From positions 17,052 through 81,051 of the IMG/VR virus record IMGVR_UViG_3300028532_000002: a stretch of 64,000 nucleotides of DNA. One strand, given 5' to 3'. Both the position numbers and the translations under genes were made by a program. This DNA is from a virus (taxonomy: Duplodnaviria > Caudoviricetes). How positions within the stretch are numbered: the stretch's first letter is position 1; each line of letters starts with the position of its first letter. Under the pieces are notes generated by a model that did no database searches, was not told where the DNA came from, and was given only the letters and a program-made list of their open reading frames with translations. Shown here piece after piece: positions 4,257-55,537 of the stretch.

Positions 4257-4453
4257 TGCCCGGCCGAGTCGCCGCTGGCGTCGCCATCAGCGCGGGAACG
4301 CACGCGCTGATCGACAGGCGTTGGCCGGTGCGCGAGTGGATGGACCGCGCCGGCGCCAGCCGATTCCGACAGCACGGCGGCGCGGCGCATGTCGACCAGG
4401 CCATGCATCACGTCGCCCTGTACGCCGCGGCCCTCGTGATCGCTGGCCGCTGA
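4256..4453 (+). CDS. DUF3307-like membrane protein, C-terminal half only
   Basis: THALIDRRWPVREWM...GGAAHVDQAMH matches the C-terminal part of a family I recall from actinomycete conjugative elements; TGATG coupling. Confidence 0.55.
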   Translation: MPGRVAAGVAISAGTHALIDRRWPVREWMDRAGASRFRQHGGAAHVDQAMHHVALYAAALVIAGR

Positions 4454-4505
4454 ACATCTGCCCGCCCCCTCGCCGGGGGCGGGCCCCACTCTCCTGGAGG
4501 ATCCG

Positions 4506-4751
4506 GTGTCCGACACCGCGACTGCCCGCAGTGTCGGGCCCCACACCCAGCTCGGTCCCGCCTGGACCCGGCTGCCGACCAACCCCGAGCGCTCCCGCGA
4601 GGCCGCCGACCGCGCCCTGGCCGAGTGCCAGGTCGACCCGACCACGGGCCTGTGGCCGTCGGGTCGGGGCCCCTCCCCGTCGTGGCAGCGGCTGATCAAG
4701 GAAGCCGCTGCGGCGGCTACGGCGGCCGACGAGGAGGAGATCGCAGCATGA
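4506..4751 (+). CDS. Hypothetical protein
   Basis: GGAGG RBS; stop overlaps next ATG. Confidence 0.55.
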   Translation: MSDTATARSVGPHTQLGPAWTRLPTNPERSREAADRALAECQVDPTTGLWPSGRGPSPSWQRLIKEAAAAATAADEEEIAA

Positions 4752-5194
4752 TCGAGTCCGCCAACATCGCCGCCAGCGTGGTGTTCCTGATCGTCGCGTT
4801 GGTCCTGTGGTTCGCGAAGACCTGGCCCAAGTTGCAGCTCATCCTGTTCATCCTCGCGGGTGCGGGCATGTCCGCCGGGGTCATCGGCGGCGGGATCCAG
4901 GACGGTGTCGTCGGTCTGATCGACGGCGTGAACCGGGGCATGGTCTGGGCGTTCGGGTCGCCCGTTCCCGGGCTGCTCGCCGTCCTCGCCGTCGTCATCA
5001 TCGTCCTGACCTGGATGGGCAAGGTGGGGTGGATGAAGAAGGCCGCCCGCTATGTGCCGGGCCTCACCGCGCTGGCCGCGCCGATCATCTGGCACCTGAC
5101 GGGCGGGATTTTCGCCCCCCTCGCTCTGATCGTCGGCAGCTTCGGTTCCATCATCGGCGCGATCATCTTCGGAACCATGGGCCTGACCTTCTAA
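4748..5194 (+). CDS. Multi-pass membrane protein (transfer/spread accessory)
   Basis: ATGA overlap; 4-5 hydrophobic helices; upstream of traB. Confidence 0.75.
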   Translation: MIESANIAASVVFLIVALVLWFAKTWPKLQLILFILAGAGMSAGVIGGGIQDGVVGLIDGVNRGMVWAFGSPVPGLLAVLAVVIIVLTWMGKVGWMKKAARYVPGLTALAAPIIWHLTGGIFAPLALIVGSFGSIIGAIIFGTMGLTF

Positions 5195-5211
5195 CCCCTC
5201 TCGGAGGAACC

Positions 5212-5499
5212 ATGCGTAGTACCCGTAACTCCCTGTTCGCCGTCGCCATCGGCGGAAGCATCGGCTTCCTGGCCGTCCGCCCCGACCTTGGCGCCGTTGG
5301 TGAAGTCCTGGACGCGCAGGCCGAGATCCTCGGACTCGAGATCGCCATGGTCGCCCCGGTCCTGTTTCTCCTCGCCGTGCTGACCGTCTTCCTCTTCGTC
5401 CTGGTCGAGATCGTGACCGGGGTCGTGGACCTCGTTACCTGGCTGATCCGGCGCCACCGCAACCGCAACGCCCCCGCGGAGGTGCACGGTGACCGCTGA
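5212..5499 (+). CDS. Two-helix membrane protein
   Basis: GGAGG RBS; hydrophobic segments; overlaps traB start. Confidence 0.7.
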   Translation: MRSTRNSLFAVAIGGSIGFLAVRPDLGAVGEVLDAQAEILGLEIAMVAPVLFLLAVLTVFLFVLVEIVTGVVDLVTWLIRRHRNRNAPAEVHGDR

Positions 5500-7573
5500 G
5501 CCGACCGACGCTCAGGTCATCCCGCTGCGCCCCCGGCGTGACGCCGAGGACCGGCCGATCCGTCCCGAGTGGACGGGCCGCGCCGGCCGTCGGCGTGCCG
5601 ACCGGCCGACCGTCGGGGCGTCGGGTGGACCCGCCGCCCGACCCGACACCCCGACCGACCACCCGACGCCCGACCCCGACCTGGAGAAGACGCAGGTCAT
5701 CAGGCGTCGGCGTCTACCGACCCTGCCGTCGGGGATCGGCGCGGCCACGCTCGCCGTGCCCGCCCGGTGCGCGTGCTGCGTGGGGCGCGGCATCAAGGCC
5801 GGCGGGGACCGGTTCGGCGAGTGGGCGTCCGAGAAGGGCCACAAGGCCGAGCGGGCGAAGAAGACCCTCTGGTGGGTCGTCGGCGGGGTGGCCGTCCTGT
5901 ACGTGACCGCTCCCTATGGCCTGCTGTGCCTGCTCACCGTCGGCGCCATCGCCGCGGTGGTCGCGGGCCGGAGGGTCCCTCCGGCGGTGTCGGGTGGGGC
6001 CGACGCTCCGGGCAGGACGTTCACCGGCCCGACCGCTCCCCGAGCCGACACGTCGGGCAACGAACCGACCATCCCGGCCGACCACCCGACGCCTCCCCCG
6101 CTGCCCGACTACACGGTGGCCGACCACCCGACCGACAGCACCGACGGCGCGAGCCGCTACTCCGGGCCCGCCATGACGGCCCGCATCACCCCGGCGACCC
6201 TGACCGCCGAAGCGCTCCCCACCCTGCTCGCCCAGGCCGGGATCATCCGACCGGCCGACCGACGGCTGGTCGTCGTCGAGGGAGAACCGACCCGACACCC
6301 GACCGGGGCGGTGTCGGCGTCCATGCTGCTGCCGCCCGGCGCCGACGCGGAGGAGGTCATCGCGCAGGCGCGGGTGGTCGCGTCCGCGCTGGGTGTCGGC
6401 AAGATGCTCGTCGGGCTGTCGGCCGACCCCGAGCACGCGGGTCGGCTGGAGCTGTATGTGGCCGACGCCGACCCGTTCACGGAGTCGGTTCCGTCGCCGT
6501 TGGTCGGTCGGGAGGAGGAGCTGTCGGTGTGGGAACGGCTGCCGGTCGGGTGGGACGTGCGTATGGACTCGGTTGCGCTGCGTCTGGTTGACGCGTCCAT
6601 GCTCATCGCCGGAGAGCCCCGCGCCGGGAAGAGCGTGGCGCTGTCGGAGATCATCGCCGCGTTCGCCTTGGACCCCTCTGCGGACCTGTTCCTGTTCGAT
6701 GGCAAGGGCGCTGGCGACCAGGCGGTGTGGAGGCCCGTCGCGCGGGTGTTCTGCAAGCGCAACGCCGAGATGCTGCGGGTCCACCTGGAGTGGGCGGTGG
6801 AGGAGATGGAGCGGCGGTTCGACGCCCTGGAGGAGGACGGGCGCGACACCAAGCTCACGCCGGAGATCGCCGAGGACCTGGGATTCAACGTGAGCTTGCT
6901 GGCCGTGGACGAGACCCGCTACTACATGTCGGATCCCACGCACGGCAAGGCGATCGCCCGCCTGGCGGTGGACCTCGCGGCTCGCGGCCCGGCGGCCGGG
7001 ATGATCTCGGCGTGGGCCACCCAGTACATGGACAAGACCGCCATCCCCCCACAGCTCAAGGGTGTGTGCTCGCTGCGGTGGGCGTTCCGCACCCCGGACG
7101 CGGTCGCGAGCAACCTCGTGTTGGGTCCAGGGGCGGTCGGCCGTGGCTACAACTCCTCCAGGATTCCCCGGGTGACGCACCGCGGCGTCAGCATTCTGGA
7201 CGCGGACGGCGACGAGCCTCAGATGATGCGCACCCACTACCTGACCCCGGCCGAGCTGCGCGAGATCGCGGACACCGCGACCGCGCTGCGCGGCGGCCCG
7301 GTGGAGGCCAGCGAGCCCGCGGCGGCGGATGCCGACGGGGCGCAGGTGCTGGAGCGGGCGCTGGCGGCGCTCGCCGACAACGAGGACCGAGTCGAGCGCG
7401 ACGACCTCGCCGAGCGGCTCGACGTGGACCCGGACGACCTCAGGGCCCGGCTCAGAACGGCCGGCGCGGGCGCCCCGCAGAGCATGCGGATCAACGGCGT
7501 TCCGAACGCGCGCGGCTGGTATCGGCGGGTCCTGGAGGAGGCGTTGGACGCTGTCACGGACGCGCCGCCGTGA
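5489..7573 (+). CDS. traB: TraB-type FtsK/SpoIIIE conjugal DNA translocase
   Basis: N-terminal TM pair, Walker A GEPRAGKS, FLFDGKG, Walker B LLAVDE, WATQY, C-terminal winged-helix-like ERDDLAERLDVDPDDLRARL. Confidence 0.9.
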   Translation: MTAEPTDAQVIPLRPRRDAEDRPIRPEWTGRAGRRRADRPTVGASGGPAARPDTPTDHPTPDPDLEKTQVIRRRRLPTLPSGIGAATLAVPARCACCVGRGIKAGGDRFGEWASEKGHKAERAKKTLWWVVGGVAVLYVTAPYGLLCLLTVGAIAAVVAGRRVPPAVSGGADAPGRTFTGPTAPRADTSGNEPTIPADHPTPPPLPDYTVADHPTDSTDGASRYSGPAMTARITPATLTAEALPTLLAQAGIIRPADRRLVVVEGEPTRHPTGAVSASMLLPPGADAEEVIAQARVVASALGVGKMLVGLSADPEHAGRLELYVADADPFTESVPSPLVGREEELSVWERLPVGWDVRMDSVALRLVDASMLIAGEPRAGKSVALSEIIAAFALDPSADLFLFDGKGAGDQAVWRPVARVFCKRNAEMLRVHLEWAVEEMERRFDALEEDGRDTKLTPEIAEDLGFNVSLLAVDETRYYMSDPTHGKAIARLAVDLAARGPAAGMISAWATQYMDKTAIPPQLKGVCSLRWAFRTPDAVASNLVLGPGAVGRGYNSSRIPRVTHRGVSILDADGDEPQMMRTHYLTPAELREIADTATALRGGPVEASEPAAADADGAQVLERALAALADNEDRVERDDLAERLDVDPDDLRARLRTAGAGAPQSMRINGVPNARGWYRRVLEEALDAVTDAPP

Positions 7574-16272: not shown

Positions 16273-17874
16273 TCACCGCGCCTCGATGGCGGCCACCCAC
16301 GCCGCCAGCTCTGCGCGCGGGTCCACCTCTGCGGAGCGCGCCGACGCGGCCTTGGAAGCGACGTCCCACCCACCGTCCAGCAGCTCTCGCAGGGCCCGCT
16401 CCCAGCCGTCGATGTCGGCCCGGTCCACGAACACCCCGGCGGGGCCGAGCGCCTCGCGGAGCCCGATCGTGGGGTGCGCGATGGTGGGGATGCCGGACGC
16501 CGCGGCCTCGATGGCGACCATCCCGTAGGACTCCTCCGCCGAGGGCATGAGCAGGACGCGGGTGCGCGCCCACACGTCCCCCGCCATGTCGTCGGTGTGG
16601 TCCTGCCAGGTGACGTTGGGCAGGCCGTCGGGGCGGACCTGTTCGGTCTGCTGGTAGCCGCCCTCCACCGCGAGGAACTGCGCGTCGGGCATCCGGCGGG
16701 CCAGCTCGTAGAACACCCCGGCGCCCTTCGCGGGGATCGGGTTGACCAGGGTCACCATGTCGCCCGGCGCCGCACGGTGCTGCTCCGCCCACACGGGCGG
16801 GTGCACCACCAGGTGGGCGCCGCGGGCCGCCAGGCGCAGGCTCCGCGCGACGTGGTGGGTGTTCGCGACGAACAGGCTGGCGCCCGCGCGCACGTCCCGC
16901 AGGATCCACGGGGCCGCCGAGTGCAACACCTGGACGAGGCGGGCGCGCGCCTGCCGGGCGAGCTGGCGGGCGAGAGGTACGGACTTCAGGTGGGAAACGA
17001 CCACGTCGGCGTCCAGGCGTTCGGGCGTGCCGACGCGGACCGTGACCCCGTCCACGACCGCGTCGTCGGTCTCGTCGGTCGCCCACACCGTCACCTCGTG
17101 GCCGCGGTCGGCCAGGGCGCGCAGGAGCTCGTGGAGCATCAGCTCGGCCCCGGCCCGGTGGGCGGGCAGGTAGTAGTGGGCCAGGGCTGCGATACGGAGC
17201 GGGCGGTCGTCGGCGGCGGCGGCGACGAGGCGGCGCATGGCCGCCGGGTCGCGGCGGGCCCGCACGTACTCCTGGTACCGGGCCCGGTTGGTGCGGTACT
17301 GGGGGGAACGCACGTTCGCGGCGGGGGTGTGGTGCAGGTGGGTGATGGTGCCGTGGTGGCGCACGCCTTCCCCCAGCAGGACGTTGGAGGCGGTCCAGAA
17401 CGCGTCGTCCTCGAACCCCCAGCCGACGAAGTCCTCGTCCATGCCGCCGGCCTTCCACCAGGCGTCCGTCGAGATGACCCACACGCCGCCGATCGGCCGC
17501 CGGGACTCGTCGGCCACGGGCGCGTCCATGGGGTCGACACCCCGCGCGTACACGGCGAGGGTGCCCTCGGGGGTGAGGGCCCGGTACCGGGTGTAGGGCA
17601 GGTGCAGGCGCCCGTCGGCCGCGGCGCCCTCGATGGCGGCCCGGAGCGGCGCCTCCTCGGCGATGGTGTCGGCGTCGCACAGCACCACCACCCCCGACCC
17701 GGCCCGGCGCACCGCGGCGTTGCGCACCCGGGCCCGGGAGAACTCGCCGTCGACGTCGACCAGGAGGTGGTCGGCGTCGGGGAGCATCTCGCGGAGCCGC
17801 CACTGCACGTACTCGGCGTGGATCTCCCGGTCCAGCTGGCCGCCCCGGAACGGGACCGCGACGGTCACCTTCAC
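16273..17874 (-). CDS. Two-domain glycosyltransferase (GT2/GT7C-like + GT4-like)
   Basis: N-domain CDADT and GGMDEDFVGWGFED; C-domain HRAGAELMLHEL, NPIPAKG, EESYGMVAIEAAASGIP. Confidence 0.92.
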   Translation of the reverse strand: MKVTVAVPFRGGQLDREIHAEYVQWRLREMLPDADHLLVDVDGEFSRARVRNAAVRRAGSGVVVLCDADTIAEEAPLRAAIEGAAADGRLHLPYTRYRALTPEGTLAVYARGVDPMDAPVADESRRPIGGVWVISTDAWWKAGGMDEDFVGWGFEDDAFWTASNVLLGEGVRHHGTITHLHHTPAANVRSPQYRTNRARYQEYVRARRDPAAMRRLVAAAADDRPLRIAALAHYYLPAHRAGAELMLHELLRALADRGHEVTVWATDETDDAVVDGVTVRVGTPERLDADVVVSHLKSVPLARQLARQARARLVQVLHSAAPWILRDVRAGASLFVANTHHVARSLRLAARGAHLVVHPPVWAEQHRAAPGDMVTLVNPIPAKGAGVFYELARRMPDAQFLAVEGGYQQTEQVRPDGLPNVTWQDHTDDMAGDVWARTRVLLMPSAEESYGMVAIEAAASGIPTIAHPTIGLREALGPAGVFVDRADIDGWERALRELLDGGWDVASKAASARSAEVDPRAELAAWVAAIEAR

Positions 17875-18414
17875 CTACGTACCCCTCACTGCCTTCTCAG
17901 CGGACCACAGGTAGTAGCCCAGCACGTCGCCCTCGTGGGCCTCGACGAGGCCGGGCCCCAGCTCCGCGCGCATCTGCGGCCCGGTCCAGTGGTCCCGGTG
18001 GATCTCGAACCAGTTCCCGTTGACGTCCGCCTGGTCGTGATGGGCCAACGGGACGCTGACGAGGACGTGGTGCGCCCAGTCCCGCATGCGCGCGAGCACC
18101 GCCCGCGCCTCCGGCTGCGTCATGTGCTCCAGCACGTCCGCGAGGATGACCAGGTCCGGTTCGCGCAGGATGGTGTACGGGTCCAGGTGGCGGATGTCCG
18201 CGACGACGACGTGGTCGTAGGCCTCGAACAGCTGGAACTGCTGGATGTAGGGGGCCCACGCCTCCACCCCCACCCACCGGCACCCCGGGGTGGCGTCGCG
18301 GGCCAGCTGCACGTAGGTGCCCTCGCCGGGTCCCACGTCCACCACAGAGGCGGGCGCGAGAGACCTGATGATCTCCCGCGCCCACCCCTTTCCCTCACGG
18401 TCGGAGGTCGGCAC
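17875..18414 (-). CDS. Class I SAM-dependent methyltransferase
   Basis: VVDVGPGEGTY motif I, GVEAW, DLVILADVLEHM. Confidence 0.9.
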   Translation of the reverse strand: MPTSDREGKGWAREIIRSLAPASVVDVGPGEGTYVQLARDATPGCRWVGVEAWAPYIQQFQLFEAYDHVVVADIRHLDPYTILREPDLVILADVLEHMTQPEARAVLARMRDWAHHVLVSVPLAHHDQADVNGNWFEIHRDHWTGPQMRAELGPGLVEAHEGDVLGYYLWSAEKAVRGT

Positions 18415-18956: not shown

Positions 18957-19943
18957 CTACTTCGGCCAGTAGAAGACGTCCGCGGTGGCCGACACGACCT
19001 TCGCGGCAGCGTCCCCGTACTGGACGACGCGGACCCGGACCCGGCGGCCCTTGGCGAGGTTGCCCTTCCAGCTGTAGGTGAAGTGGCCGTTGCCGCCGGC
19101 GTGCACGGGGCTGTCGATGGGCCGGTTGCGGGCGTACACCCACGACCCCTTGCCGTCCTGTTCGTACTCGGTGGCGCGCAGCTGCACCTCCGCACCGGCG
19201 GACAGGTCGGCGATGGTCACCCCCACGGAGAAGTCGTAGAGGGCGCCGTCCTTCTCGTTGACGCCCACCAGCGAGTACAGGCTGCCGGTGGAGGTGCCGC
19301 CGTGGTCGGCGTCGACCACGGTCTCGAACTCCAGGGAGGTCCACTCGCCGGGGTTGAGGGTCTGGGTCCGGTCCTTCTCGAACCGGCGGTGTCGGGGCAT
19401 GCCGTCTTCTCCCTTGTCGTTATCGGTGAAGCTCGTGGGCGGCTTCGCGAACGTGCCGTCCTCGACGAGCCGGTAGGCCCTGGCGCCGGGGCACGAGGTG
19501 GAGATGAAGTCGCGGTGGCCGAGCACCTTCCCGGAGATGGAGGTGTCCGGTTCCATCAGCCACTGGCGCAGCTGGCGGACGGCGTTGATCTGCTCCGGGG
19601 TGATCTCGTCGTTCGGGCCCGTGGCCAGGGTCACCGAGTAGTGCGAGGTGTTGCCGCCGGGCTGGGCGGCCTGCGCCCGGTACAGGCCGCGCCCCTCCAG
19701 GACGTAGCCGTGGCTGCACGCCATCCAGCTGTAGCCGATGTCCGCCCAGCCGCGGGACGGCCCGGTATGGAAGCGACGGGTGTTGCGCCAGTACGTGATG
19801 CAGGCCGAGTGATCCTTGTCGGCGAGGCCCTGGTCGGCGCTGTCGTAGTGGATGACCAGACCCGATCGGGGGTTGGCCCTCTCGGCGGGCGTCGACCCCC
19901 AGCCGAGGTCGGCGCGAGACACGTACTTCGTGGGTATGGGCAT
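18957..19943 (-). CDS. Endolysin, amidase_2 (PGRP-like) N-acetylmuramoyl-L-alanine amidase
   Basis: GLVIHY, WADIGYSW, EGRG, AQPGGN, GHRDFISTSCPG. Confidence 0.92.
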   Translation of the reverse strand: MPIPTKYVSRADLGWGSTPAERANPRSGLVIHYDSADQGLADKDHSACITYWRNTRRFHTGPSRGWADIGYSWMACSHGYVLEGRGLYRAQAAQPGGNTSHYSVTLATGPNDEITPEQINAVRQLRQWLMEPDTSISGKVLGHRDFISTSCPGARAYRLVEDGTFAKPPTSFTDNDKGEDGMPRHRRFEKDRTQTLNPGEWTSLEFETVVDADHGGTSTGSLYSLVGVNEKDGALYDFSVGVTIADLSAGAEVQLRATEYEQDGKGSWVYARNRPIDSPVHAGGNGHFTYSWKGNLAKGRRVRVRVVQYGDAAAKVVSATADVFYWPK

Positions 19944-19958: not shown

Positions 19959-20429
19959 TCAGGACAGGGGCGGCAGCGGGGTGACGGTCTCCACCGGCCC
20001 CGGCGGGCCGGGCGGCCCGGGTGGGCCCTGCGGACCTTCGGGACCCTGAGGTCCGGCAGGCCCCGGGACACCGGGGGCGCCGGACGGACCGGCCGGGCCC
20101 GGGGCGCCATCGGCCCCGCTCTCCCCGTCGGCGCCGTCGCCTCCGGGGGGTCCGCTCGAACCGTCGTCGCCGTCCCTCCCGGAAGGTCCGGGGCGGCCGG
20201 GCGGGCCGGACGGGCCCGGCACAGGAATCGGGGTGGAGGTCGGCGGCGGCACCGGCGTTCCGCCGAGCTGCTCCACCTGCTGGGACAGCTCCTCGCGGTG
20301 CTGCTCGGCGTCGGACAGGCGCTGGGCCTGCTGCACGGCCGCGCCGATCAGGGCCGCCAGCACCCCGTAGAGGACGAGGAGAGCCAGGACGTACAGGATG
20401 CCGGCCGCACGTACTCGTCTCCGGGTCAT
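19959..20429 (-). CDS. Membrane-anchored collagen-like protein
   Basis: N-terminal TM, short coiled coil, long Gly-X-Y run. Confidence 0.8.
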
Positions 20430-46716: not shown

Positions 46717-47583
46717 TCAGGACACGTCGTCGTTGCCGATGACGACGGCCCGGTCGGCATCGACCAGCGCCGCACCCGCGAAGGTCGAAAGAAGCGACCG
46801 GTCGGTGGCGGTCGTCGGGTCGAACATGTAGATGTGGCGGAGCGAAATGCCCTCTTCCACGGCGGTGGAGGACTGGGTGGCGCCCTCGGGGTCGGCCGGC
46901 GCGCTGTTCGCGAACGCGAACGAGCTCTCGTGGTAGAGGACGCCGCGGGTGCCGGTCAGCGCGGCGGTCTCGACGACGTTGAACCCTCGGTAGCGGCCGA
47001 TCCGCGCCTCGGTGAGCGCGGTCGGGGTGGGCGGGGAGTCGAACGGGGTCAGGTTGGGCTTGCCGAGCAGGATCTCGGCCAGCGCGGGGGACGCGGCGAG
47101 CCAGCGGCCCTCCATGGGGACGTGGTTGCGGCCCAGGTCGGCGCGGCCGGACAGGATCGCGGCGTCGATGTTGGAGGTGGCTCCGCCGGTGACCTCGTAC
47201 TCGATCGGCAGGGCGTTCATGACGTCCGCGAGGACGTCTTCGGCGCCGACGGCGACCGCGCGCACCTGCGGCATGACGACCTGGGTCGTGAAGTTCTCGA
47301 TGTCCAGGGTGCGCTGCTGGAGGGTGATGCGCGCGCCGTCGTAGATGTGCTCCAGGCCCGTCTCGACGGGGATCTCGGAGATCTCGGAGAAGTCCAGGGT
47401 GTCGCCCGGGTTCTCCTGGATCTTGGCGTCCCGGGGTACCGGGACGCGGATGATCACGGAGCCGCCGGAGGGGCCGGAGTACTCGTCCGAGGGGACCCGG
47501 GAGACCGTCATGGGCAGGGCCAGACGGCGGGTCAGGAGCGATACGGCCAGTCGCGAGATGCGGCTGGAGGTGACAAGCGCCAT
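46717..47583 (-). CDS. Major capsid protein
   Basis: Follows scaffold; EGISLRHIYMFD...SLLSTFAGA motif typical of actinophage HK97-fold capsids. Confidence 0.85.
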   Translation of the reverse strand: MALVTSSRISRLAVSLLTRRLALPMTVSRVPSDEYSGPSGGSVIIRVPVPRDAKIQENPGDTLDFSEISEIPVETGLEHIYDGARITLQQRTLDIENFTTQVVMPQVRAVAVGAEDVLADVMNALPIEYEVTGGATSNIDAAILSGRADLGRNHVPMEGRWLAASPALAEILLGKPNLTPFDSPPTPTALTEARIGRYRGFNVVETAALTGTRGVLYHESSFAFANSAPADPEGATQSSTAVEEGISLRHIYMFDPTTATDRSLLSTFAGAALVDADRAVVIGNDDVS

Positions 47584-47615: not shown

Positions 47616-48263
47616 TCACCGACCGTAGGTCTGCTTCATGGCCTTGGCGACGAGCTCGTCGTCGGTGGGGCCGTCGTCCGCGCCGGAGGCTCCGCCTCGG
47701 AGCTTCTCGGTGGGACGGGTGGTCTTCTTGGGTTCGGGGGAGGTTTCGGGGGTCGGCTCGGTGTCGCCGGCGGGCTTGTCGAGGCCGAACAGGGTCTTGA
47801 TCTTGGCGGCGTCGTTGAGCAGCGCTTCCTTGGTCTTGCCGCGGAGACGTGTGGCCTGCTCGGTGGTCAGGCCGGTCTCTTCGGCGACGGTCGCGATGAG
47901 GACCTTGCGTTCGGCTGCCGCGGTCTTCTCCTCGGCTGCGGTCACGCGGGCGGCGAGTTCGTCCAGCTGGGCCTTGGTGGCGGTGCCTTCGGCCTTGGCC
48001 TTCTCCAGTTGCCTGAAGTTGGTCTTGGCCCGGTCCTCCTGCCTTTTCAGGAGGGCCTTGTACTTGCGGGCTTCCGCTTCCCAGTCCGTGCCGTCGGCGG
48101 GGGCGTCGTCCTCCTGGGTGGAGGCGGTGTCCTCGTCGGTGTCGGCGCTGGTGCTCTCGGCGGCGGTCTCGGTGGTCTCGTCCCGTTCCGGGGCGGTCTC
48201 CGTGGACTGCTGCTCCTGCTCCTGCTCTTCGCTCTGTTCGGTTGTCTCGTCGTGCTCGCTCAT
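47616..48263 (-). CDS. Capsid scaffolding protein
   Basis: Acidic N-terminus, coiled coil, RLRGKTKEALLNDA, PTEKLRGGA; frame extends to ATG 48479. Confidence 0.85.
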   Translation of the reverse strand: MSEHDETTEQSEEQEQEQQSTETAPERDETTETAAESTSADTDEDTASTQEDDAPADGTDWEAEARKYKALLKRQEDRAKTNFRQLEKAKAEGTATKAQLDELAARVTAAEEKTAAAERKVLIATVAEETGLTTEQATRLRGKTKEALLNDAAKIKTLFGLDKPAGDTEPTPETSPEPKKTTRPTEKLRGGASGADDGPTDDELVAKAMKQTYGR

Positions 48264-48475
48264 GCGGTCCCGTTCCGGGTGTGTCGTGGCCGTTTCGGCG
48301 CTGTCTTCCGCTTCTGCGTGTGCTGTTGTGGAGTCGCCCGTTTCGGGCTCCTCTGCCTCGGATGATACCCCAATGGAATCACCATTGGCTTGTTGATGCG
48401 TTTCAGGTATCACGGCCGCCACGGCGAGGGCCTCCTCGGCTTCGAGCGCTTCCACGGCCTCTTTGACCTGCTGGT

Positions 48476-48742
48476 TCATGGGTTGAGCCTTCCTGTGGTG
48501 GTGTCCCAGGTGTCCGGGATCAGGTTGAGGAGCCCCAGCGCGCGCGCCCGACGGACGATGAATCGTCGCACCAATGCGCGTTGGGTATCAGTCGCCGGGC
48601 TCACCCGGCCGACGGCGCGGATCGCGTTCTCCAGGTCGGTGCGGTTACGGATGGGGAAGCGGCCCGGGGCGCCGTCGCGCCCCGGGAGCGCCCGGCCCTG
48701 CTGGGCCAGGCGCCGCCGCTCCCCCGCGCCCGGGTCAGCCAC
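48476..48742 (-). CDS. Small head-module protein (DUF6582-like, uncertain)
   Basis: GRFPIRNRTDLENAIRAVGR...RRARALGLLNLIPDTW. Confidence 0.6.
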   Translation of the reverse strand: MADPGAGERRRLAQQGRALPGRDGAPGRFPIRNRTDLENAIRAVGRVSPATDTQRALVRRFIVRRARALGLLNLIPDTWDTTTGRLNP

Positions 48743-49913
48743 GGACGGCCACCCGGAACACGAACTTCTTCCCGCTGTCGACGGTGTCGGTGTGCTCCAC
48801 GTCGCCGCACGGCACACGCCCGGCGTCCAGGGCGCGGCGCAGCACGACGCGGGCCTGCCGGTCCAGCCACGTCTGGTCGACCCGGTCGGGGCGCACCGCG
48901 GGGACGGTGAGCTCGAAGTGCTCGCGCTCGTCCTCCTCCTGGGCGGAGGCGTCGGGGTCGCCGGCCGGGACGGCGGCGCCCGCCTCGGCGTCCTTGTGCT
49001 CGGGTTCGGCGTCGGCCGCGCGCAGCCGCTCGACGAGCTCGGCCTTGTTGCCGGTGGTGGGCAGGCCGCGCTTCTTCGCGCGCTCGCGCAGGTCCGCGAC
49101 GAGCAGCTCCTCGTAGTCCACGGCGCTGGTGTCGGTCATCGGGGTCTCCTCCATGGGTGGGCCCAGCGGGGCGCCGGGCTCGGACAGGATCAGGCGCATC
49201 GCGCCCGGGTCGGGGACAGTGGCGGCGGTGCGCGGCAGGATGCCCGCCGCGGGGGTGTGGCCGGCGGCCTCCTTGTAGCGCAGGGCCAGGGCGGTGTTCA
49301 CGGCCCGGCCGTGCCCGTGCTTGTCCGCAGAGGGCGGGTGCCACAGGTGGTAGGCGCGGCCGGGGATGCGGGCGCCGGGGCCGCCGGTGAGGGTGTGGAC
49401 GGCGTACTGGTAGGCGCGGTCCTCCCCTCCCCACGCGCTCATGCGCTCGTCGTGGCCGCCCACGAGGGCGTTGACGTCGGCGCGCACGGCGATGCACCCG
49501 GACGGGGCGTCGGCGACCAGGCGCTCGGCGGGGTGGGTCGGCATGCGTGCGTCGGGCCCGTGCTCGAGAATCCGGCGGGTGGCGGCGCGGGGCAGGCGCA
49601 CGAGGTCGATGTAGGCGTGCACGAGGCGGCCGGTGGTGTGCGCGGCCTCGGCGGCGGCGTGCAGCTGGTCGATGGGGACAACGGTGTCGGCGTCCGCGAA
49701 CACCAGCACCTGCGCGCCGTCGTTGCGGGCGCGGGCGGCGGCGTCGTTGCGGGCGGCGGCACGGGATGGCCCGGTGCCGTAGACGACGGTGAGGCCGTAC
49801 CGCTCCCAGTACGCGCGCGTCCACTCCCGGGCCGCCTCCCGGTGGGGGCAGCCCGTGGGGAACCAGGGCACGCACACGGCCATGCGCGGGGACTCGCGCA
49901 CGAACACGGTCAT
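48735..49913 (-). CDS. Glycosyltransferase (GT2/GT7C-like) fused to HeH/SAP-like domain
   Basis: FADADT, GGHDERMSAWGGED; C-terminal YEELLVADLRERAKKRGLPTTGNKAELVERL. Confidence 0.85.
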   Translation of the reverse strand: MTVFVRESPRMAVCVPWFPTGCPHREAAREWTRAYWERYGLTVVYGTGPSRAAARNDAAARARNDGAQVLVFADADTVVPIDQLHAAAEAAHTTGRLVHAYIDLVRLPRAATRRILEHGPDARMPTHPAERLVADAPSGCIAVRADVNALVGGHDERMSAWGGEDRAYQYAVHTLTGGPGARIPGRAYHLWHPPSADKHGHGRAVNTALALRYKEAAGHTPAAGILPRTAATVPDPGAMRLILSEPGAPLGPPMEETPMTDTSAVDYEELLVADLRERAKKRGLPTTGNKAELVERLRAADAEPEHKDAEAGAAVPAGDPDASAQEEDEREHFELTVPAVRPDRVDQTWLDRQARVVLRRALDAGRVPCGDVEHTDTVDSGKKFVFRVAVRG

Positions 49914-50257
49914 TTCAGCCCGCGGTCGCGCCGGTCGATGCAGTCGGCCAGGGCCATCCACTCGCGGGCGGCCTCGATCTTGCGACGCGCGGCACCTTCG
50001 TTGACCATGGGCGCGGTGGCGGCCGTGAGTGCGTCGGCCGCGGCGGTGACGGCCTGGACGAAGGTGGGCATCTGCCCCTTCTCGCGGGGCGTCGGGTCGG
50101 TGGCCATGGGGTTCTCCTGGTGTCGGTAGTCGGGGCCGGGGATGAGGAGTCCGCCGCGCTGGAAGCGCTCGGCCTCCACAGGCTTCGGGGCCGCGGGGTC
50201 GCGGGGAAGGGATTCCTGCTGCTGCTCGCGGATGGGCCCGGGGTTGGGGACGGCCAC
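49910..50257 (-). CDS. Hypothetical protein
   Basis: GGAGGA RBS for GTG 50257; alternative ATG 50107 also has an RBS. Confidence 0.55.
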   Translation of the reverse strand: MAVPNPGPIREQQQESLPRDPAAPKPVEAERFQRGGLLIPGPDYRHQENPMATDPTPREKGQMPTFVQAVTAAADALTAATAPMVNEGAARRKIEAAREWMALADCIDRRDRGLK

Positions 50258-50259
50258 GG

Positions 50260-50577
50260 TCAGTCCTCCGGGTGGTGCCAGGTGCCGCCGAGGTACACGC
50301 GGGTGCCGGTGTGGCAGCGGGCGCCGGGGGCGTCGCCGGCCGGGTCGCCGGGGGCGCCGGGCACGCGCGGCGTGAAGAACATTCCGGTGGGGTTCAGCAC
50401 GGCCAGGCCGACGCCGTGGTCGGACTCGCCAGCGGGCGCAGACCAGTCGTGCACCTGCGTGACGACCGCGGCCCGGCACACCGACGGATACGCCTGGGTT
50501 CCGTCGGGGCGCACCGGGGTGCCGTGGGCGACGTAGTGCACGGTGTCGCCCACGTGGGGCGGCCAGTGTGCGGCCAT
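50260..50577 (-). CDS. Conserved-type actinophage small protein
   Basis: PHVGDTVHYV...CRAAVVT...GLAVLNPTGMFF. Confidence 0.75.
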   Translation of the reverse strand: MAAHWPPHVGDTVHYVAHGTPVRPDGTQAYPSVCRAAVVTQVHDWSAPAGESDHGVGLAVLNPTGMFFTPRVPGAPGDPAGDAPGARCHTGTRVYLGGTWHHPED

Positions 50578-50579
50578 GG

Positions 50580-50957
50580 TCAGGCTTCCTTCGCGCGGGC
50601 GCGGCGCAGGGCGTCGACCGCCTCGGCCTCGGTGGCGGTGAGCTGGTAGGTGGTGCGGAGCGTGTGGGTCTCCCCGCGGTACTCGGCCAGGGCCTGGCGG
50701 AGGCCGTTCTCGTCGCGGTCGTAGGAGCGCCACCACTCCATGGCCTGCCACACAGGGGCGAGCCGGTCGGTGGACGCCTCGACGCGGGCTCCGGCGGCGC
50801 GCAGGGTCGCGAGCACGCCTGCGGTCTCGGCGGCGGCGTCCTCCGCGTAGCCGAGTTCGGCGAGGGCGGTGACCATGTCGGACAGGTCGTCGGCGCGGGT
50901 GGCGAGCGCCGCGAGGGTCCGGGCGTCGCAGAGGTAGTTGAACGATCCGCCGCTCAC
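50580..50957 (-). CDS. Hypothetical protein
   Basis: MSGGSFNYL...VWQAMEWWRSYD; GGAGGA RBS. Confidence 0.7.
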   Translation of the reverse strand: MSGGSFNYLCDARTLAALATRADDLSDMVTALAELGYAEDAAAETAGVLATLRAAGARVEASTDRLAPVWQAMEWWRSYDRDENGLRQALAEYRGETHTLRTTYQLTATEAEAVDALRRARAKEA

Positions 50958-51157
50958 GAGCGTCCTCCCGGGTAGAAGAGCGCTTCGGGGGCGAACTCCT
51001 CTGCAGTGAGGAGGCTGCGCAGGCCGGTCCAGACGGCGCGCTCCGTCTCGTCGCCCTCCTCGGTGCCGAGGGCGACCTTGGCAGCCTGGCGGAGGGCCTT
51101 GAGCTCGTCCGTGGTGAGCGTGAGCGTGTGGGTGACGGTGGTGGCGATCTTGGCCAT
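50954..51157 (-). CDS. Small hypothetical protein
   Basis: Overlapping stop/start. Confidence 0.6.
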   Translation of the reverse strand: MAKIATTVTHTLTLTTDELKALRQAAKVALGTEEGDETERAVWTGLRSLLTAEEFAPEALFYPGGRS

Positions 51158-51159
51158 GC

Positions 51160-51426
51160 TCAGGACTCCCTGGCCTGGTCAGCTGCGGCGAGGGCCTCGT
51201 GCTCCTCGGGCCGGTAGATGCGGGTGGTCGCGATCCGGTCGCAGGTGCCGACGTCTCCGGGGACGTTCGGGTGCTGACCGCCGAGGACGATCCGGTCGGC
51301 GCCGACCGCGATGAGAATGCCGACGTGGCGGACCTCGCCGGGGGTGGAGACGACGACGGGGTGGCCGATGAGGTGCCAGTACTTGGTGGGGTCGTCGGGG
51401 ACCCCAGTGGGAAGGAACTTCGTCAT
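51160..51426 (-). CDS. Small hypothetical protein (SH3/Sm-like)
   Basis: GGAG RBS; LIGHPVVV...VGILIAV. Confidence 0.6.
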   Translation of the reverse strand: MTKFLPTGVPDDPTKYWHLIGHPVVVSTPGEVRHVGILIAVGADRIVLGGQHPNVPGDVGTCDRIATTRIYRPEEHEALAAADQARES

Positions 51427-51590: not shown

Positions 51591-52937
51591 TTAGACGGCG
51601 GTAAGTTCGGCTGCGCGCGCGACCGGCTGGGCGGCCGGGTCGGCGTCGGTGTTGTCGAGGTCGTGGTCGCCGTCGGCGGTTCCGTCGCGGGCGGCCTGGC
51701 GGTCGCGTTCGGCGCGGGCCTCGATCCACCGGTCGACGGTGGACTGGGAGACGCCGGGCACCATCTCGTACAGCTCCTGCACGGGCACGTCGAGCTTCTC
51801 GCCGAGGATCTCCAGGGCGGACACGACAAGGCCCAGGCGTCGGGCCGCAGTGTCCTTCCACATGACCTCGGCGAGCGGGTCGTCGGGGATGCCGGCCATC
51901 TCTCCGGCGCGGCCGAGGAGTTGTTCGTGCCCCTCCCCCAGGGCGGTCTCGCGTTCGATGAGCTTGCGGTCGGTGGCGGCGTTGACGGCGTCGAGGGCTT
52001 CGGCGCTGATCTGCACGATCTGGCCGAGGAGTTCGTTGGCGGGGGTCTGGGAGATGACGGCGAGGTGGCGCAAGGTGGCCTCGCGGGAGTCGATGTAGGG
52101 GTCCAGGGGCACCGGGTCGAACTGCCCCAGGGCCACCTCGCCGGGCTTCTTGGGGATGGTCAGCAGGTTCGCCGCGGCGGCCTTGACCCTGTCGGCGCCC
52201 TTGGCAAGCCAGCCGATGATGTACCGCTGGCCGTGCGCCCCGTAGTGCTGGGCCACGAGCAGGAGGAAAGTCGTGATGTTGATCTGGTCCTGGAGGTCCA
52301 TCAGCGGTTCGATGGTGCCGACCACGGGGTCGTCGAGGTCGACGGTGGGCAGGTAGCGGACGATGGGGCACACGCCCTGGTCGTGCGACTCGGTGTCGCG
52401 GTGGTCGAAGCCGCCCTGGCCGAGGTAGAGGGTGTGCACGTCCTGGTTGTCGTAGAGGCGCCACTGGCCGTGGTGGCGCTTCTCCAGGGCGAACTCCGGC
52501 CAGACGTCGTCGTCGCCGTAGGCCGCGGTGAGCTGGCGGGGGGAGGCTCCGCGCAGAACGGGGACGGGCTCGCCCGGGAGGGTGATGCCGTAGGCGGCCC
52601 CGTAGGTGGAGGCGGCGCGGGTGATGCCGAGCTGGCGGGAGTCGAACTGGTTGCGCTGCCAGATGTCCCACACCGCCTTGGCGTGGCCGGTGTTCTCGCG
52701 CCGGTACCCGTCGACGTACAGGGACTGAGTCTCCGATTCGGGGACCAACCTGAGGATGTTGACCTTCGCGATGTTGGCGAGGGCCTTCAGCTCCAGGGGG
52801 GCGTCCGGCGGGAGCCAGGTCAGTTCGGGTTCGCCGCGCACGTACATGCGGATCTTGTCGAGGCGCTCCTTCTCGCGGCCTCGGATCTTCAGCAGCTCCT
52901 GGGCGCGTGCCTGGACCTGGTCTGGTGTGAGCGCCAC
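51591..52937 (-). CDS. Portal protein (SPP1 gp6-like)
   Basis: Downstream of TerL; YGAAY, GVCPIVRY, MDLQDQIN, ISAEAL. Confidence 0.9.
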   Translation of the reverse strand: MALTPDQVQARAQELLKIRGREKERLDKIRMYVRGEPELTWLPPDAPLELKALANIAKVNILRLVPESETQSLYVDGYRRENTGHAKAVWDIWQRNQFDSRQLGITRAASTYGAAYGITLPGEPVPVLRGASPRQLTAAYGDDDVWPEFALEKRHHGQWRLYDNQDVHTLYLGQGGFDHRDTESHDQGVCPIVRYLPTVDLDDPVVGTIEPLMDLQDQINITTFLLLVAQHYGAHGQRYIIGWLAKGADRVKAAAANLLTIPKKPGEVALGQFDPVPLDPYIDSREATLRHLAVISQTPANELLGQIVQISAEALDAVNAATDRKLIERETALGEGHEQLLGRAGEMAGIPDDPLAEVMWKDTAARRLGLVVSALEILGEKLDVPVQELYEMVPGVSQSTVDRWIEARAERDRQAARDGTADGDHDLDNTDADPAAQPVARAAELTAV

Positions 52938-53026: not shown

Positions 53027-54358
53027 TCAGAAGCCCATCTCGAAGTCGAATCCCTCGTCGACGTGCATGACCAGGTACCGACTGGCGTCCATGCCGTGGT
53101 CGTTGATCTTCAGCGGCTGCTCCTTCGGGCCGCTCCGGGCGGTGCCGGGGTCCCACACGTACCCGGTGATCTCCTCCAACGTGGAGCAGGGCTTCTTCGC
53201 GGCCTCCAGCTCCATGTCGCGGGAGACCACGGCGTCGCGCAGGAACAGGATCCGCGGCCGGCCGTCGCCGGTGACGCGCATGCGCGCCTGGACGGCCTGG
53301 ATGCCCTCAGACACCTTCTTGTCGGCGCTGGTGGTGATCATGCCGAGCTCGCGTTCCAGGACCGCGCGGCCCTCGGCGTCGTGGTCGACGACGACCGCAC
53401 TGGGGAGGGGTTCGGTCCACTCCCCTCCCGGGCCCTGCATGGCGGCGAGGATGTCGCGCGCGTGCAGGTCGACGGTGCGTTTGGTCCGGTAGATCTCCCG
53501 GTACAGGTACAGGCGCCCGTCGCCGTCCTGGGCCCACCACTGGGCGACGAAAGGGTTGGTGTACCCGAAGTCGACGGCGAGGTAGCGGGTCCAGTCCGCG
53601 GGGATGTCGAAGCGGTCGAGGACGTGGACGGTGTCCTGGAAGTCCTCGTAGATGATGCCTTCGGCGGCGGCCCACACGCCGCGGCGCAGGCGGGCGTGCC
53701 GGACCCCGGTGAGGTTGTCGAGCTTGCCGATGTAGGCGACGCCGCGCTCGGTGAGGGACCCGTCGGCGTTGAAGTAGACGGGGTTGTCCTCGTGGCGGGT
53801 GTTGATCAGCCTCGTGGTGCCCTTGTCGCAGCGCAGCTTCAAGAAGTGGGTGGGCGAGTCCGGGTTGCAGCCCGCCAGCAACTGCTGGAAGGACATGGCG
53901 CCGTGGCGGAGGCGGGTCATGATCGCCTCCCAGTCGTCGACGGTGAGCTCGGTGGCCTCGTCCGCGAACACCACGTCGTACTCCGACGACATGATCTTGG
54001 TGGGTTTGTCCATGCCGCCGACGACGATCGTGGACCCGTTGTCGTACCGGTAGGCGGCGGCCTCCTGCGGGGAGCCGCCGTAGAAGTGCACGGCTCCGGT
54101 CGCGAGGAGTTCGGGGATGACCTGCTCGCGCCAGGTGACCAGCGTCGTCGACCCCAGGGACACCGAGGTCTTGCGGACGATCAGCCCGCGCATGCCCGGG
54201 TTGAGCAGCGCCATGAGGTTGAGCTTCTCCAGGCACACCCGCGACTTGCCGGTGCCGGCCGGGCCACACGCGAGGACCTCGTCGTCGCGCGCCTCCATCA
54301 CCTCCACGGCGTGCCCGCGCGGGGTGTAGGCGTGGACGAGGTCAGCGGAGAGCGTCAA
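53027..54358 (-). CDS. terL: Terminase large subunit (PBSX-like)
   Basis: GPAGTGKS Walker A, VFADEATE Walker B, CNPD, AVDFGYTNP, DHGMDASRY. Confidence 0.95.
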   Translation of the reverse strand: MTLSADLVHAYTPRGHAVEVMEARDDEVLACGPAGTGKSRVCLEKLNLMALLNPGMRGLIVRKTSVSLGSTTLVTWREQVIPELLATGAVHFYGGSPQEAAAYRYDNGSTIVVGGMDKPTKIMSSEYDVVFADEATELTVDDWEAIMTRLRHGAMSFQQLLAGCNPDSPTHFLKLRCDKGTTRLINTRHEDNPVYFNADGSLTERGVAYIGKLDNLTGVRHARLRRGVWAAAEGIIYEDFQDTVHVLDRFDIPADWTRYLAVDFGYTNPFVAQWWAQDGDGRLYLYREIYRTKRTVDLHARDILAAMQGPGGEWTEPLPSAVVVDHDAEGRAVLERELGMITTSADKKVSEGIQAVQARMRVTGDGRPRILFLRDAVVSRDMELEAAKKPCSTLEEITGYVWDPGTARSGPKEQPLKINDHGMDASRYLVMHVDEGFDFEMGF

Positions 54359-54832: not shown

Positions 54833-55537
54833 TTACCGGTCTGAGCGTCGGATGCGGAGCTTGCAGCGGCACCAGGGGTGGGCGGGTGGGAGGCCGGTGA
54901 ACCCGGTCCAGTTGGTGAAGGACTGGTAGGTGCCGTCGGGTCCGGTGGGGGTGGTGCCGTCGAGGTCGTTGCAGACGGGGCAGACGCTGGTGTCCTCCTC
55001 GGACCCCCATTCGGTGGTGCGTCCGAGGGCGCGGGCGGTGTGGTCGAACACCTGGTTGTAGGTGCCGTACAGCCAGGTGGTGATGGTGCGGGTGAGGGTG
55101 CGGGCCAGGCGTGCAAGTTGCTGGGAGGGGGGTGTGGGGTTGATGGGCAGGGTGGTGCCGAGGGCGGCGGCGGTGTCGGTGAGGGCCTGGACGATGTCGG
55201 CGTGGACGTCGTCGAGGGTGGTGGCGATCAGGCGGCGGATGGTGGTCGGGTCGGTGGGGGGCGTGCCGGCAGCTGCCGTGTGGGCGAGGGTGGCGGCTTG
55301 GGTGAGGAGGGTGGTGGTCTGGTCGGTGAGTTCTCGGGTGGCTTCGTGGGTGAGGTGGTCGGCGGCGAGGGCGGTGTCGCGCCCCCAGGTGCCGGGGAGG
55401 GCGAGGGGAACGGGGGGTAGCTGGGTGAGGGCGCCGGCGAGCGCGGCGGTGATGGCCGCGGCGGCTGCGGCTTCGAGGGCGGTGAGCTGTTCCTCGACCT
55501 GCTCGTCGGTGGGTGGTTCCTCTGGTGTGGTGGTCAT
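54833..55537 (-). CDS. MuF-like minor head protein
   Basis: W...EDTSVCPVC..LDG...PPAHPWCRC. Confidence 0.8.
   Translation of the reverse strand: MTTTPEEPPTDEQVEEQLTALEAAAAAAITAALAGALTQLPPVPLALPGTWGRDTALAADHLTHEATRELTDQTTTLLTQAATLAHTAAAGTPPTDPTTIRRLIATTLDDVHADIVQALTDTAAALGTTLPINPTPPSQQLARLARTLTRTITTWLYGTYNQVFDHTARALGRTTEWGSEEDTSVCPVCNDLDGTTPTGPDGTYQSFTNWTGFTGLPPAHPWCRCKLRIRRSDR

Follow-up and report, generated by a model that had tools for sequence, protein, structure and literature searches.

The 64,000-nucleotide (nt) stretch of phage DNA analyzed here (the window) spans positions 17,052 to 81,051 of the IMG/VR virus record IMGVR_UViG_3300028532_000002, an 81-kb record of approximately 71% G+C with an estimated completeness of 92%. 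Within its head-assembly operon we studied a single open reading frame (ORF) of 392 codons plus a TGA stop (48735..49913, minus strand), in which a glycosyltransferase (GT) runs without interruption into a SAP-domain protein that ends in a small C-terminal domain (CTD). The sequence of this ORF, the identities of its domains, the boundary between them and the synteny of the locus were all observed directly. We consider it fairly probable that the ORF is a read-through fusion of two ancestrally separate late genes, forming a nested gene in the style of phage lambda C/Nu3 from which both a 392-amino acid (aa) and a 134-aa product would be expected.

The continuity of the frame was supported by several observations. 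The minus-strand ORF (49913..48735) has a stop-free translation of 392 aa, and its third-position GC content (GC3) was 0.90–1.00 in one frame from 49913 to approximately 48760, passing the junction with no change of frame. The eight codons of the junction itself are not enough for the GC3 plot to establish the frame there. The identical 392-aa product was called on seven contigs from at least three samples, and the three contigs that were compared, one from an ENA assembly and two from Logan runs and each from a different sample, had 100% DNA identity to the window over 4.9–13 kb. As the same product was present on seven contigs and the DNA was identical in three samples, the frame is not a one-off assembly error. 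These findings bore out the claim of the initial annotation, which had been made from the sequence of the window, that the GT continues into the SAP-type protein with no intervening stop, and they indicated that the ORF is a genuine in-frame union of the two.

The GT domain occupies aa 11–250 (49164..49883, minus strand) and was assigned from its profile match, its fold and its invariant alignment columns. The phrog_1721 “galactosyl transferase” profile matched this domain with an E value of 6e-20, and its homologues carry precomputed matches to PF00535, PF02709 and PF10111. In an 11-sequence alignment, the motifs D74-A-D76 (the DxD motif), HDER, WGGED (aa 161–165) and HLWH were all invariant, the stretch G152-GHDERMSAWGGED-165 fell on invariant columns, and all 23 invariant columns were retained in the window GT. 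An AlphaFold2 model of the domain had confidence (pLDDT) values mostly above 90 over aa 11–220, and Foldseek matched it (probability 1.0, E values of 1e-6 to 6e-5) to B4GalT1, B4GalT7, ppGalNAc-T1/2/10/12 and chondroitin polymerase (chondroitin synthase). Together, these data identify the first gene, at the level of sequence and predicted structure, as a metal-dependent (DxD) GT-A enzyme of the beta4GalT / ppGalNAc-T-like type that is predicted to transfer a sugar, in agreement with the GT2/GT7C-like domain with a DAD motif noted in the initial annotation.

The HeH/SAP-like motif and small C-terminal domain proposed for the remainder of the protein were similarly upheld. The SAP (helix-extended-helix) domain at aa 267–301 (49011..49115, minus strand) matched PF02037 with 44.2 bits (E = 1.3e-11) in the full protein and 46.4 bits (E = 2.7e-12) in the 134-aa form, both above the cut-off of 23.9. 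Its helices lie at aa 14–23 and 32–44 of the short form. In VIA comparisons it matched the human SAP domain 1zrj with a Z score of 7.0 (rmsd 2.5 over 49 residues, 45% identity), and other SAP domains had Z scores of 5–6.3. By these measures aa 267–301 is a bona fide SAP domain, with predicted DNA binding. It is followed by an acidic, Pro/Ala-rich disordered linker (aa 302–329, 48927..49010, minus strand; pLDDT below 50 at aa 307–327), whose length varies among homologues, and then by the CTD (aa 330–392, 48738..48926, minus strand), a conserved 62-aa domain with a confidently modelled beta-alpha-beta-beta fold. In the alignment of homologues from six other protein clusters, the CTD has a PCG(D/E)V motif and a number of basic residues that do not vary. 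There was no Pfam family match to the CTD, and Foldseek searches of PDB and BFVD together with VIA-wide comparison gave only generic small alpha/beta matches with Z scores of 5.4 or less. The best BFVD rows were uncharacterized actinophage proteins of 73–82 aa (E approximately 2e-3), and an ESM Atlas look-up returned nothing but small viral SAP/Rho_N clusters, all below the trust level.

The junction between the two halves retains what appears to be a complete translation start. The junction segment itself (GPPMEETP, aa 251–258; 49140..49163, minus strand) was modelled as disordered, with pLDDT values below 50 at aa 254–263 across the GT/SAP boundary. Within it lies a Shine-Dalgarno (SD) sequence, GGAGGAG (49146..49152, minus strand), 6 nt (ACCCCG) before an in-frame ATG at codon 259 (49137..49139, minus strand) that starts the 134-aa form. 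Consistent with the strong internal ribosome-binding site (RBS) at 49139 described in the initial annotation, this ATG was the sole in-frame ATG, GTG or TTG of the ORF with an SD match of at least 5 nt, and its SD equaled in quality those of the capsid gene and other genes of the operon. The Met-Glu-Glu encoded by the SD region is not conserved in GT homologues, so the SD sequence is not explained by constraints on GT coding. Predicted mRNA folding around the internal SD was no different from that of shuffled sequences (z = −0.79).

Comparison with related loci suggested where this start came from. The window has ATGA at 49139, which places a TGA in the +1 frame. The start region of the window, ATGACCGACACC, is identical to the SAP start of the closest relative, locus L031, a Streptomyces calidiresistens prophage. 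In L031 the junction reads GGAGGGCTC-ATGA-CCGACACC, the TGA of an upstream GT-B-like gene overlaps the SAP ATG, and the SAP protein begins MTDT; in the window the junction reads GGAGGAGACCCCG-ATGA-CCGACACC, and the short form likewise begins MTDT. A second related locus, L012, has a GTGA stop-start overlap at the equivalent place. The shared start sequence, the MTDT N-terminus and the ATGA or GTGA overlaps in relatives indicate that 49139 is the ancestral start of the SAP gene.

Searches for homologues of each half showed them to be separate elsewhere. In a search of 5.8 billion proteins, ten homologues of the GT were found, all of which end 2–8 residues past an EPGxPL motif that corresponds to aa 245–250 of the window protein (EPGAPL). 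Five of these are free proteins of 237–247 aa, three have an N-terminal NTP-transferase domain and none has a SAP domain. In other actinophages this accessory GT is thus either a protein by itself (approximately 240 aa) or joined to a nucleotidyltransferase, and its gene is frequently within a head module. When the last 134 residues were used as the query of an exhaustive phmmer search, six other CTD-bearing clusters (P0013, P0014, P0017, P0020, P0040 and P0045) were recovered, which are metagenomic or prophage in origin. All six are free-standing proteins of 112–215 aa with the same SAP-linker-CTD layout, and most begin at the position of the internal ATG. No second GT-SAP fusion was found among 1.8 billion representative proteins, in which the fusion represents one of seven CTD-bearing clusters. 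The 134-aa part had no tblastn match in 50,697 phage records, a pattern scan of IMG/VR for CTD relatives produced SAP-only matches, and CTD relatives were found neither in 185,579 species genomes nor in JGI metagenome contigs. Thus, the homologues are split in relatives, a point the initial annotation had suggested checking, as GT and SAP-CTD are separate in all ten GT homologues and all six CTD clusters.

The SAP-CTD gene occupies a consistent position in the four related loci for which gene order was obtained. The order was portal - SAP - scaffold - major capsid protein (MCP) in L011; FkbM methyltransferase - SAP - 122 aa - scaffold - MCP in L012; SAP - 45 aa - 88 aa - scaffold in L010; and portal - Methyltransf_24 - 322-aa GT-B-like - SAP - 93 aa - scaffold - MCP in L031. 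The SAP-CTD gene was therefore upstream of the scaffold and capsid genes in all four loci and behind the portal gene in both loci that include one. MCP identity to the window was 50–83% in the three loci that include an MCP (L011, L012 and L031), and the L031 portal is 58% identical to that of the window. The placement of the fused gene between portal and scaffold given in the initial annotation agreed with this order, with five small ORFs separating it from the portal gene and one 88-aa ORF from the scaffold gene, and all the elements observed in that annotation were thereby located at the coordinates it gave. From this synteny, the second gene (SAP - acidic linker - CTD) is a conserved resident of the portal-to-scaffold-capsid module in a Streptomyces-phage lineage. 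In three of the five loci (the window, L012 and L031), a transferase immediately precedes the SAP gene. In L012 this is an FkbM-type methyltransferase (L012:72-722), and in L031 the interval between portal and SAP (L031:7386-9004) holds Methyltransf_24 and the 322-aa GT-B-like protein, the latter with weak Glyphos_transf / Epimerase_2 matches. This adjacency could stem from a functional link or from an insertion hot-spot. A capsid-based search of IMG/VR for closer relatives returned three distant loci only (MCP 42–50% identical), none of which contained a SAP-CTD by tblastn; L035 and L036, two of the three, instead have a MuF/VG15-like gene behind the portal gene.

Based on these comparisons, we propose the following route to the fused gene. 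The gene that precedes SAP in relatives has its stop within a 4-nt ATGA or GTGA stop-start overlap. The window has the same ATGA, but the GT enters it in the frame of the ATG and not that of the TGA, so that there is no termination at the ATGA. One base gained or lost (an indel) within the 24 G/C-rich nt that separate EPGAPL from the ATG would suffice to switch between the two states; no intermediate between the split and fused states was found among the homologues. The 392-aa GT-SAP-CTD protein would then start at 49913 by coupling to the upstream 115-aa gene, with whose stop its ATG forms an ATGA overlap, and the 134-aa SAP-CTD protein would start at 49139 from its own intact SD and ATG. If the GT is translated at all, the 392-aa form must be made. 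The separate 134-aa product raised in the initial annotation is credible because the internal RBS and ATG constitute the start of a protein that is free-standing in relatives and match the N-termini of those proteins, and since a free SAP-CTD is retained in every relative, it is parsimonious to expect that the 134-aa form is still produced. On this reasoning both products would be made, and the long form would carry the GT wherever the SAP-CTD goes.

Programmed frameshifting was also considered. The heptamer G GGC CCA (49158-49164, minus strand, in X XXY YYZ register) is located 21 nt before the internal ATG and is probably a chance occurrence in high-GC DNA; we treated it as such. The frameshift idea was dropped: the −1 frame, which is open for 424 codons, is Arg-rich in the way that open frames of high-GC DNA typically are, looks non-coding by GC3 and misses the ATGA stop.

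Several observations weigh against a read-through fusion that yields two working products. The fusion was seen in one phage genotype only, and a single genotype with identical copies provides no evidence of selection for the fused state. The retained SD and ATG could be a relic of a recent event and not a start that is used. In addition, the Pfam Glycos_transf_2 score of the GT domain, 21.6 bits, falls just below the gathering cut-off of 23.3, and a composition check showed that the C-termini of the capsid protein and the putative tail-tube protein are not Ser/Thr-rich. One rival is a recent neutral accident, in which the ATGA stop was lost through a single-base indel or through the insertion that brought in the GT. 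The fusion would then have no role as such: the phage would simply tolerate the long form, the GT would act as an unfused enzyme does, and free SAP-CTD from the internal start would perform the conserved role. The fusion is a singleton among the seven CTD-bearing clusters and its fusion point is exactly at the old gene boundary, with the ATGA still there, which makes such an accident a serious rival, and one that we regard as possible if somewhat doubtful. It would also be in keeping with the flexible junction linker, which would let the GT and SAP-CTD fold independently, and with the portal-to-SAP interval being a variable slot that holds different cargo in each relative. Against it, the genotype was recovered unchanged from several samples, indicating that the fusion is at least not strongly deleterious, and there is a precedent for head-module enzymes being targeted by shared C-terminal parts in lambda C/Nu3, in which the shared C-terminus targets the protease to the head. 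The tether put forward in the initial annotation, of the GT to the procapsid or packaging DNA, is possible, and the short form as its structural partner is a guess. By the logic of the lambda precedent, there is a functional version of the fusion in which the CTD and/or SAP domain of the 392-aa form would co-assemble with the 134-aa form on proheads, on the terminase-DNA complex or on packaged DNA, delivering the GT to the head (or even leading to its being packaged) so that virion proteins are glycosylated in situ. We think this unlikely, and hold the same opinion of its broader part, in which SAP-CTD would act in packaging in the manner of gpFI and bring in glycan-modifying enzymes in a Streptomyces-phage lineage.

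Two further explanations appear highly improbable to us. If the true genome lacked one base, or had two extra, immediately before 49139, the GT would end at the TGA of the ATGA, the fusion would be a sequence artefact and the locus would hold two ordinary, translationally coupled genes. The ATGA does give a stop in the +1 frame, the 24 nt that precede it consist of G/C runs (GGGCCCACCC), and the shortness of the junction leaves its frame unfixed by GC3; however, the DNA was identical in the IMG/VR record, the ENA assembly and the two Logan run assemblies, consistent indels are rare in short-read assemblies, and the EPGAPL motif shares one frame with the SAP domain. The other explanation, to which we likewise assign very little probability, is that SAP-CTD is a substrate or adaptor of the sugar or methyl transferases encoded upstream, making the fusion an enzyme-substrate or enzyme-adaptor linkage. 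It draws on the transferases that immediately precede SAP in three of five loci with a 4-nt overlap or as a fusion (GT-A in the window, FkbM in L012, and Methyltransf_24 with the GT-B-like protein in L031), and on the Thr/Ser-rich N-terminal extension of the L031 protein. However, L011 has no upstream transferase, the window SAP-CTD is Ser/Thr-poor (at most 17% in any 30-aa window), GT homologues are found in many contexts that have no SAP gene, and a shared insertion hot-spot would explain the adjacency equally well. The read-through fusion of two separate late genes into a nested pair is the explanation that we prefer.

The locus combines known kinds of element, a phage GT and a nested head gene, and it was compared with four systems. 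The closest parallel for its organization is lambda C/Nu3, which is annotated as C at 4418-5737 and nu3 at 5132-5737, the latter being the in-frame C-terminal part of C, just behind the portal gene. Both are single head-module ORFs downstream of portal that have an internal start with its own RBS, and in both the short form is the C-terminal part of the enzyme-bearing form. They differ in that the enzyme is a GT here and a protease in lambda, and the short product is a SAP-domain protein here and a scaffold in lambda. The C/Nu3 arrangement is also conserved in lambdoid phages, whereas the window fusion is a singleton whose two products are predicted from the genes.

The GT itself resembles the virion-glycosylation GTs of Che8/Rita-type mycobacteriophages, which are actinophage GT-A enzymes with the DxD and WGGED signature, and the window phage also has several GT domains and a methyltransferase in one genome, as those phages do. 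It is 36% identical over aa 10–216 to the Phrappuccino gp143/144 GTs (phrog_1721; E = 5e-14). Unlike those of the Che8/Rita type, the window GT is located inside the head-assembly operon and is fused in frame to a SAP protein. None of the 11 phage-database matches covered the SAP/CTD part. The closest homologues of the GT domain (52–62% identity) are the NTP-transferase and GT fusions P0002-P0004, which are similarly inside head modules; their partner, however, is an N-terminal MobA-like nucleotidyltransferase and not a C-terminal SAP-CTD, and their slot is behind the MCP gene.

The SAP-CTD part has a resemblance to lambda gpFI (Packaging_FI, 2LSM), which is of the same size, is also encoded in the head module and likewise has an N-terminal helical HeH/SAP-like segment, an acidic flexible linker and a C-domain of approximately 60 aa. 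In lambda, gpFI forms a bridge between the prohead and the terminase-DNA complex (PMC13595911). The gene positions differ, as lambda FI follows the capsid gene. Comparisons of SAP-CTD with gpFI produced a weak match to phrog_92 (E = 0.029, to one of seven members), and hhalign aligned gpFI with the SAP motif over 30 N-terminal columns with a probability of 24%. Membership of the gpFI family (PF14000) was rejected, as SAP-CTD had no Packaging_FI match at E ≤ 5, while lambda gpFI itself scored 4.8e-59. The two C-domains do not align, and 2LSM was absent among the Foldseek and VIA-wide rows listed, which does not in itself exclude a common fold. The likeness to gpFI is thus an analogy of architecture, not family membership. 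In lambda FI (L033:4403-4801), the N-terminal segment ELIARLRSLGEQLNRDVSLTGTKEELALRV weakly matched Pfam SAP (E = 0.0018, below the cut-off) and aligned with the SAP motif; the packaging chaperone gpFI may therefore carry a degenerate HeH/SAP motif.

The late operon in which the fused gene is situated is long and entirely on the minus strand, and 4-nt gene overlaps are common across it. It includes the large terminase gene (54358..53027, minus strand) and the gene for a 448-aa portal protein (51591..52937, minus strand; PF05133, E = 2.6e-17), which is followed by five small genes of 88, 67, 125, 105 and 115 aa (49910..51426, minus strand) that occupy the interval between portal and GT, none of which is present in the relatives L011 or L031. 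Between the GT-SAP gene and the scaffold gene is a conserved 88-aa gene (48476..48742, minus strand). It begins with a GTG in an 8-nt overlap with the GT-SAP stop, and at its other end there is a 4-nt overlap between its stop and the scaffold ATG. The gene shares 64% identity with the neighbor in L010 and 60% with the 93-aa gene of the L031 prophage, has the motif GRFPIRNRxDLxNAxRAVGR...RRFIxRRA...IPxTW and had no match in Pfam, PHROG or NCBIfam. The head scaffolding protein (287 aa; 47616..48479, minus strand; phrog_1879, E = 4.5e-13) is followed by the MCP (288 aa; 46717..47583, minus strand; phrog_283, E = 8e-27), which is 83% identical to that of the S. calidiresistens prophage, and after the MCP come head-tail and then tail genes. 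A gene for a MuF-like minor head protein (54833-55537, minus strand, equivalent to L001:377-1081) has a weak precomputed PF04233 match and precedes the terminase genes rather than being behind portal, an order also found in L011; the more distant relatives L035, L036, L004 and L037 have a VG15/MuF-like gene behind portal.

A second glycan-related cluster is located at the end of the late operon (16273..18414, minus strand) and comprises an S-adenosylmethionine (SAM) methyltransferase (18414..17875, minus strand) followed by a 533-aa double GT (17874..16273, minus strand). The double GT has a GT7C/GT2-like N-terminal half, which is 34% identical to the head-module GT, and a GT4 C-terminal half. 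The gene order at this end of the operon is a collagen-repeat protein (20429..19959), an Amidase_2 endolysin (19943..18957), a 116-aa ORF, the methyltransferase and the double GT. The genome thus contains one methyltransferase and three GT domains, whose genes all lie on the minus strand in the orientation of the late operon.

To our knowledge, the glycosylation of virion proteins by phage GTs is a recent discovery that has so far been made only in mycobacteriophages, in which tail-tube subunits are reportedly glycosylated as well as capsid proteins. The O-glycosylation of mycobacteriophage capsid proteins by phage GTs has been reported (Freeman et al. 2023, as it is cited in PMC11256854), and glycosylation by phage GTs is mentioned more generally in PMC12582341. 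Our best guess as to function, judging from gene content, is that the head-module GT, the two other GT domains of the phage and the methyltransferase would glycosylate virion proteins. The placement of this GT clade in head modules fits such a role without proving it, as P0002 (62% identical) and P0003 (57%), the two closest homologues that have genomic context, come from two other phages that differ in capsid family, and in each the gene directly follows that for the major capsid protein. In a further phage (L013:2451-4118), a GT4-like gene comes before that of P0005, a free GT homologue, and behind P0005 is a 555-aa protein with a precomputed Phage_phiTE_241_C match and a weak CBM_5_12 match, so that a GT pair adjoins a probable tail or fiber gene. 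When the C-termini of the capsid and putative tail-tube proteins and the scaffolding protein of the window were checked, only the scaffold was Ser/Thr-rich, in its acidic N-terminal half. This region is a long acidic Ser/Thr-rich N-terminal extension (aa ~25–130) with up to 43% Ser plus Thr per 30-aa window, most of which is missing from the shorter scaffolds of L011 and L012. It is conceivable that the extension would be a target of O-glycosylation.

These findings make the window a candidate for a head-linked glycosylation system in a Streptomyces-type phage, and the GT in its head operon, together with the homologues that adjoin capsid genes, points to a wider habit of head-linked glycosylation among actinophages. 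Were the fusion a recent accident, it would still illustrate neatly the single step by which two genes that share a 4-nt stop-start overlap can become a nested pair. As a natural fusion, it would also allow the importance of linking the enzyme to SAP-CTD to be probed directly. The analyses in addition define a small conserved family of the head module, composed of a SAP domain, an acidic linker and a new 62-aa domain. The definition of this SAP-CTD family and its recurrent coupling to sugar and methyl transferase genes are a more durable result than the fusion itself.

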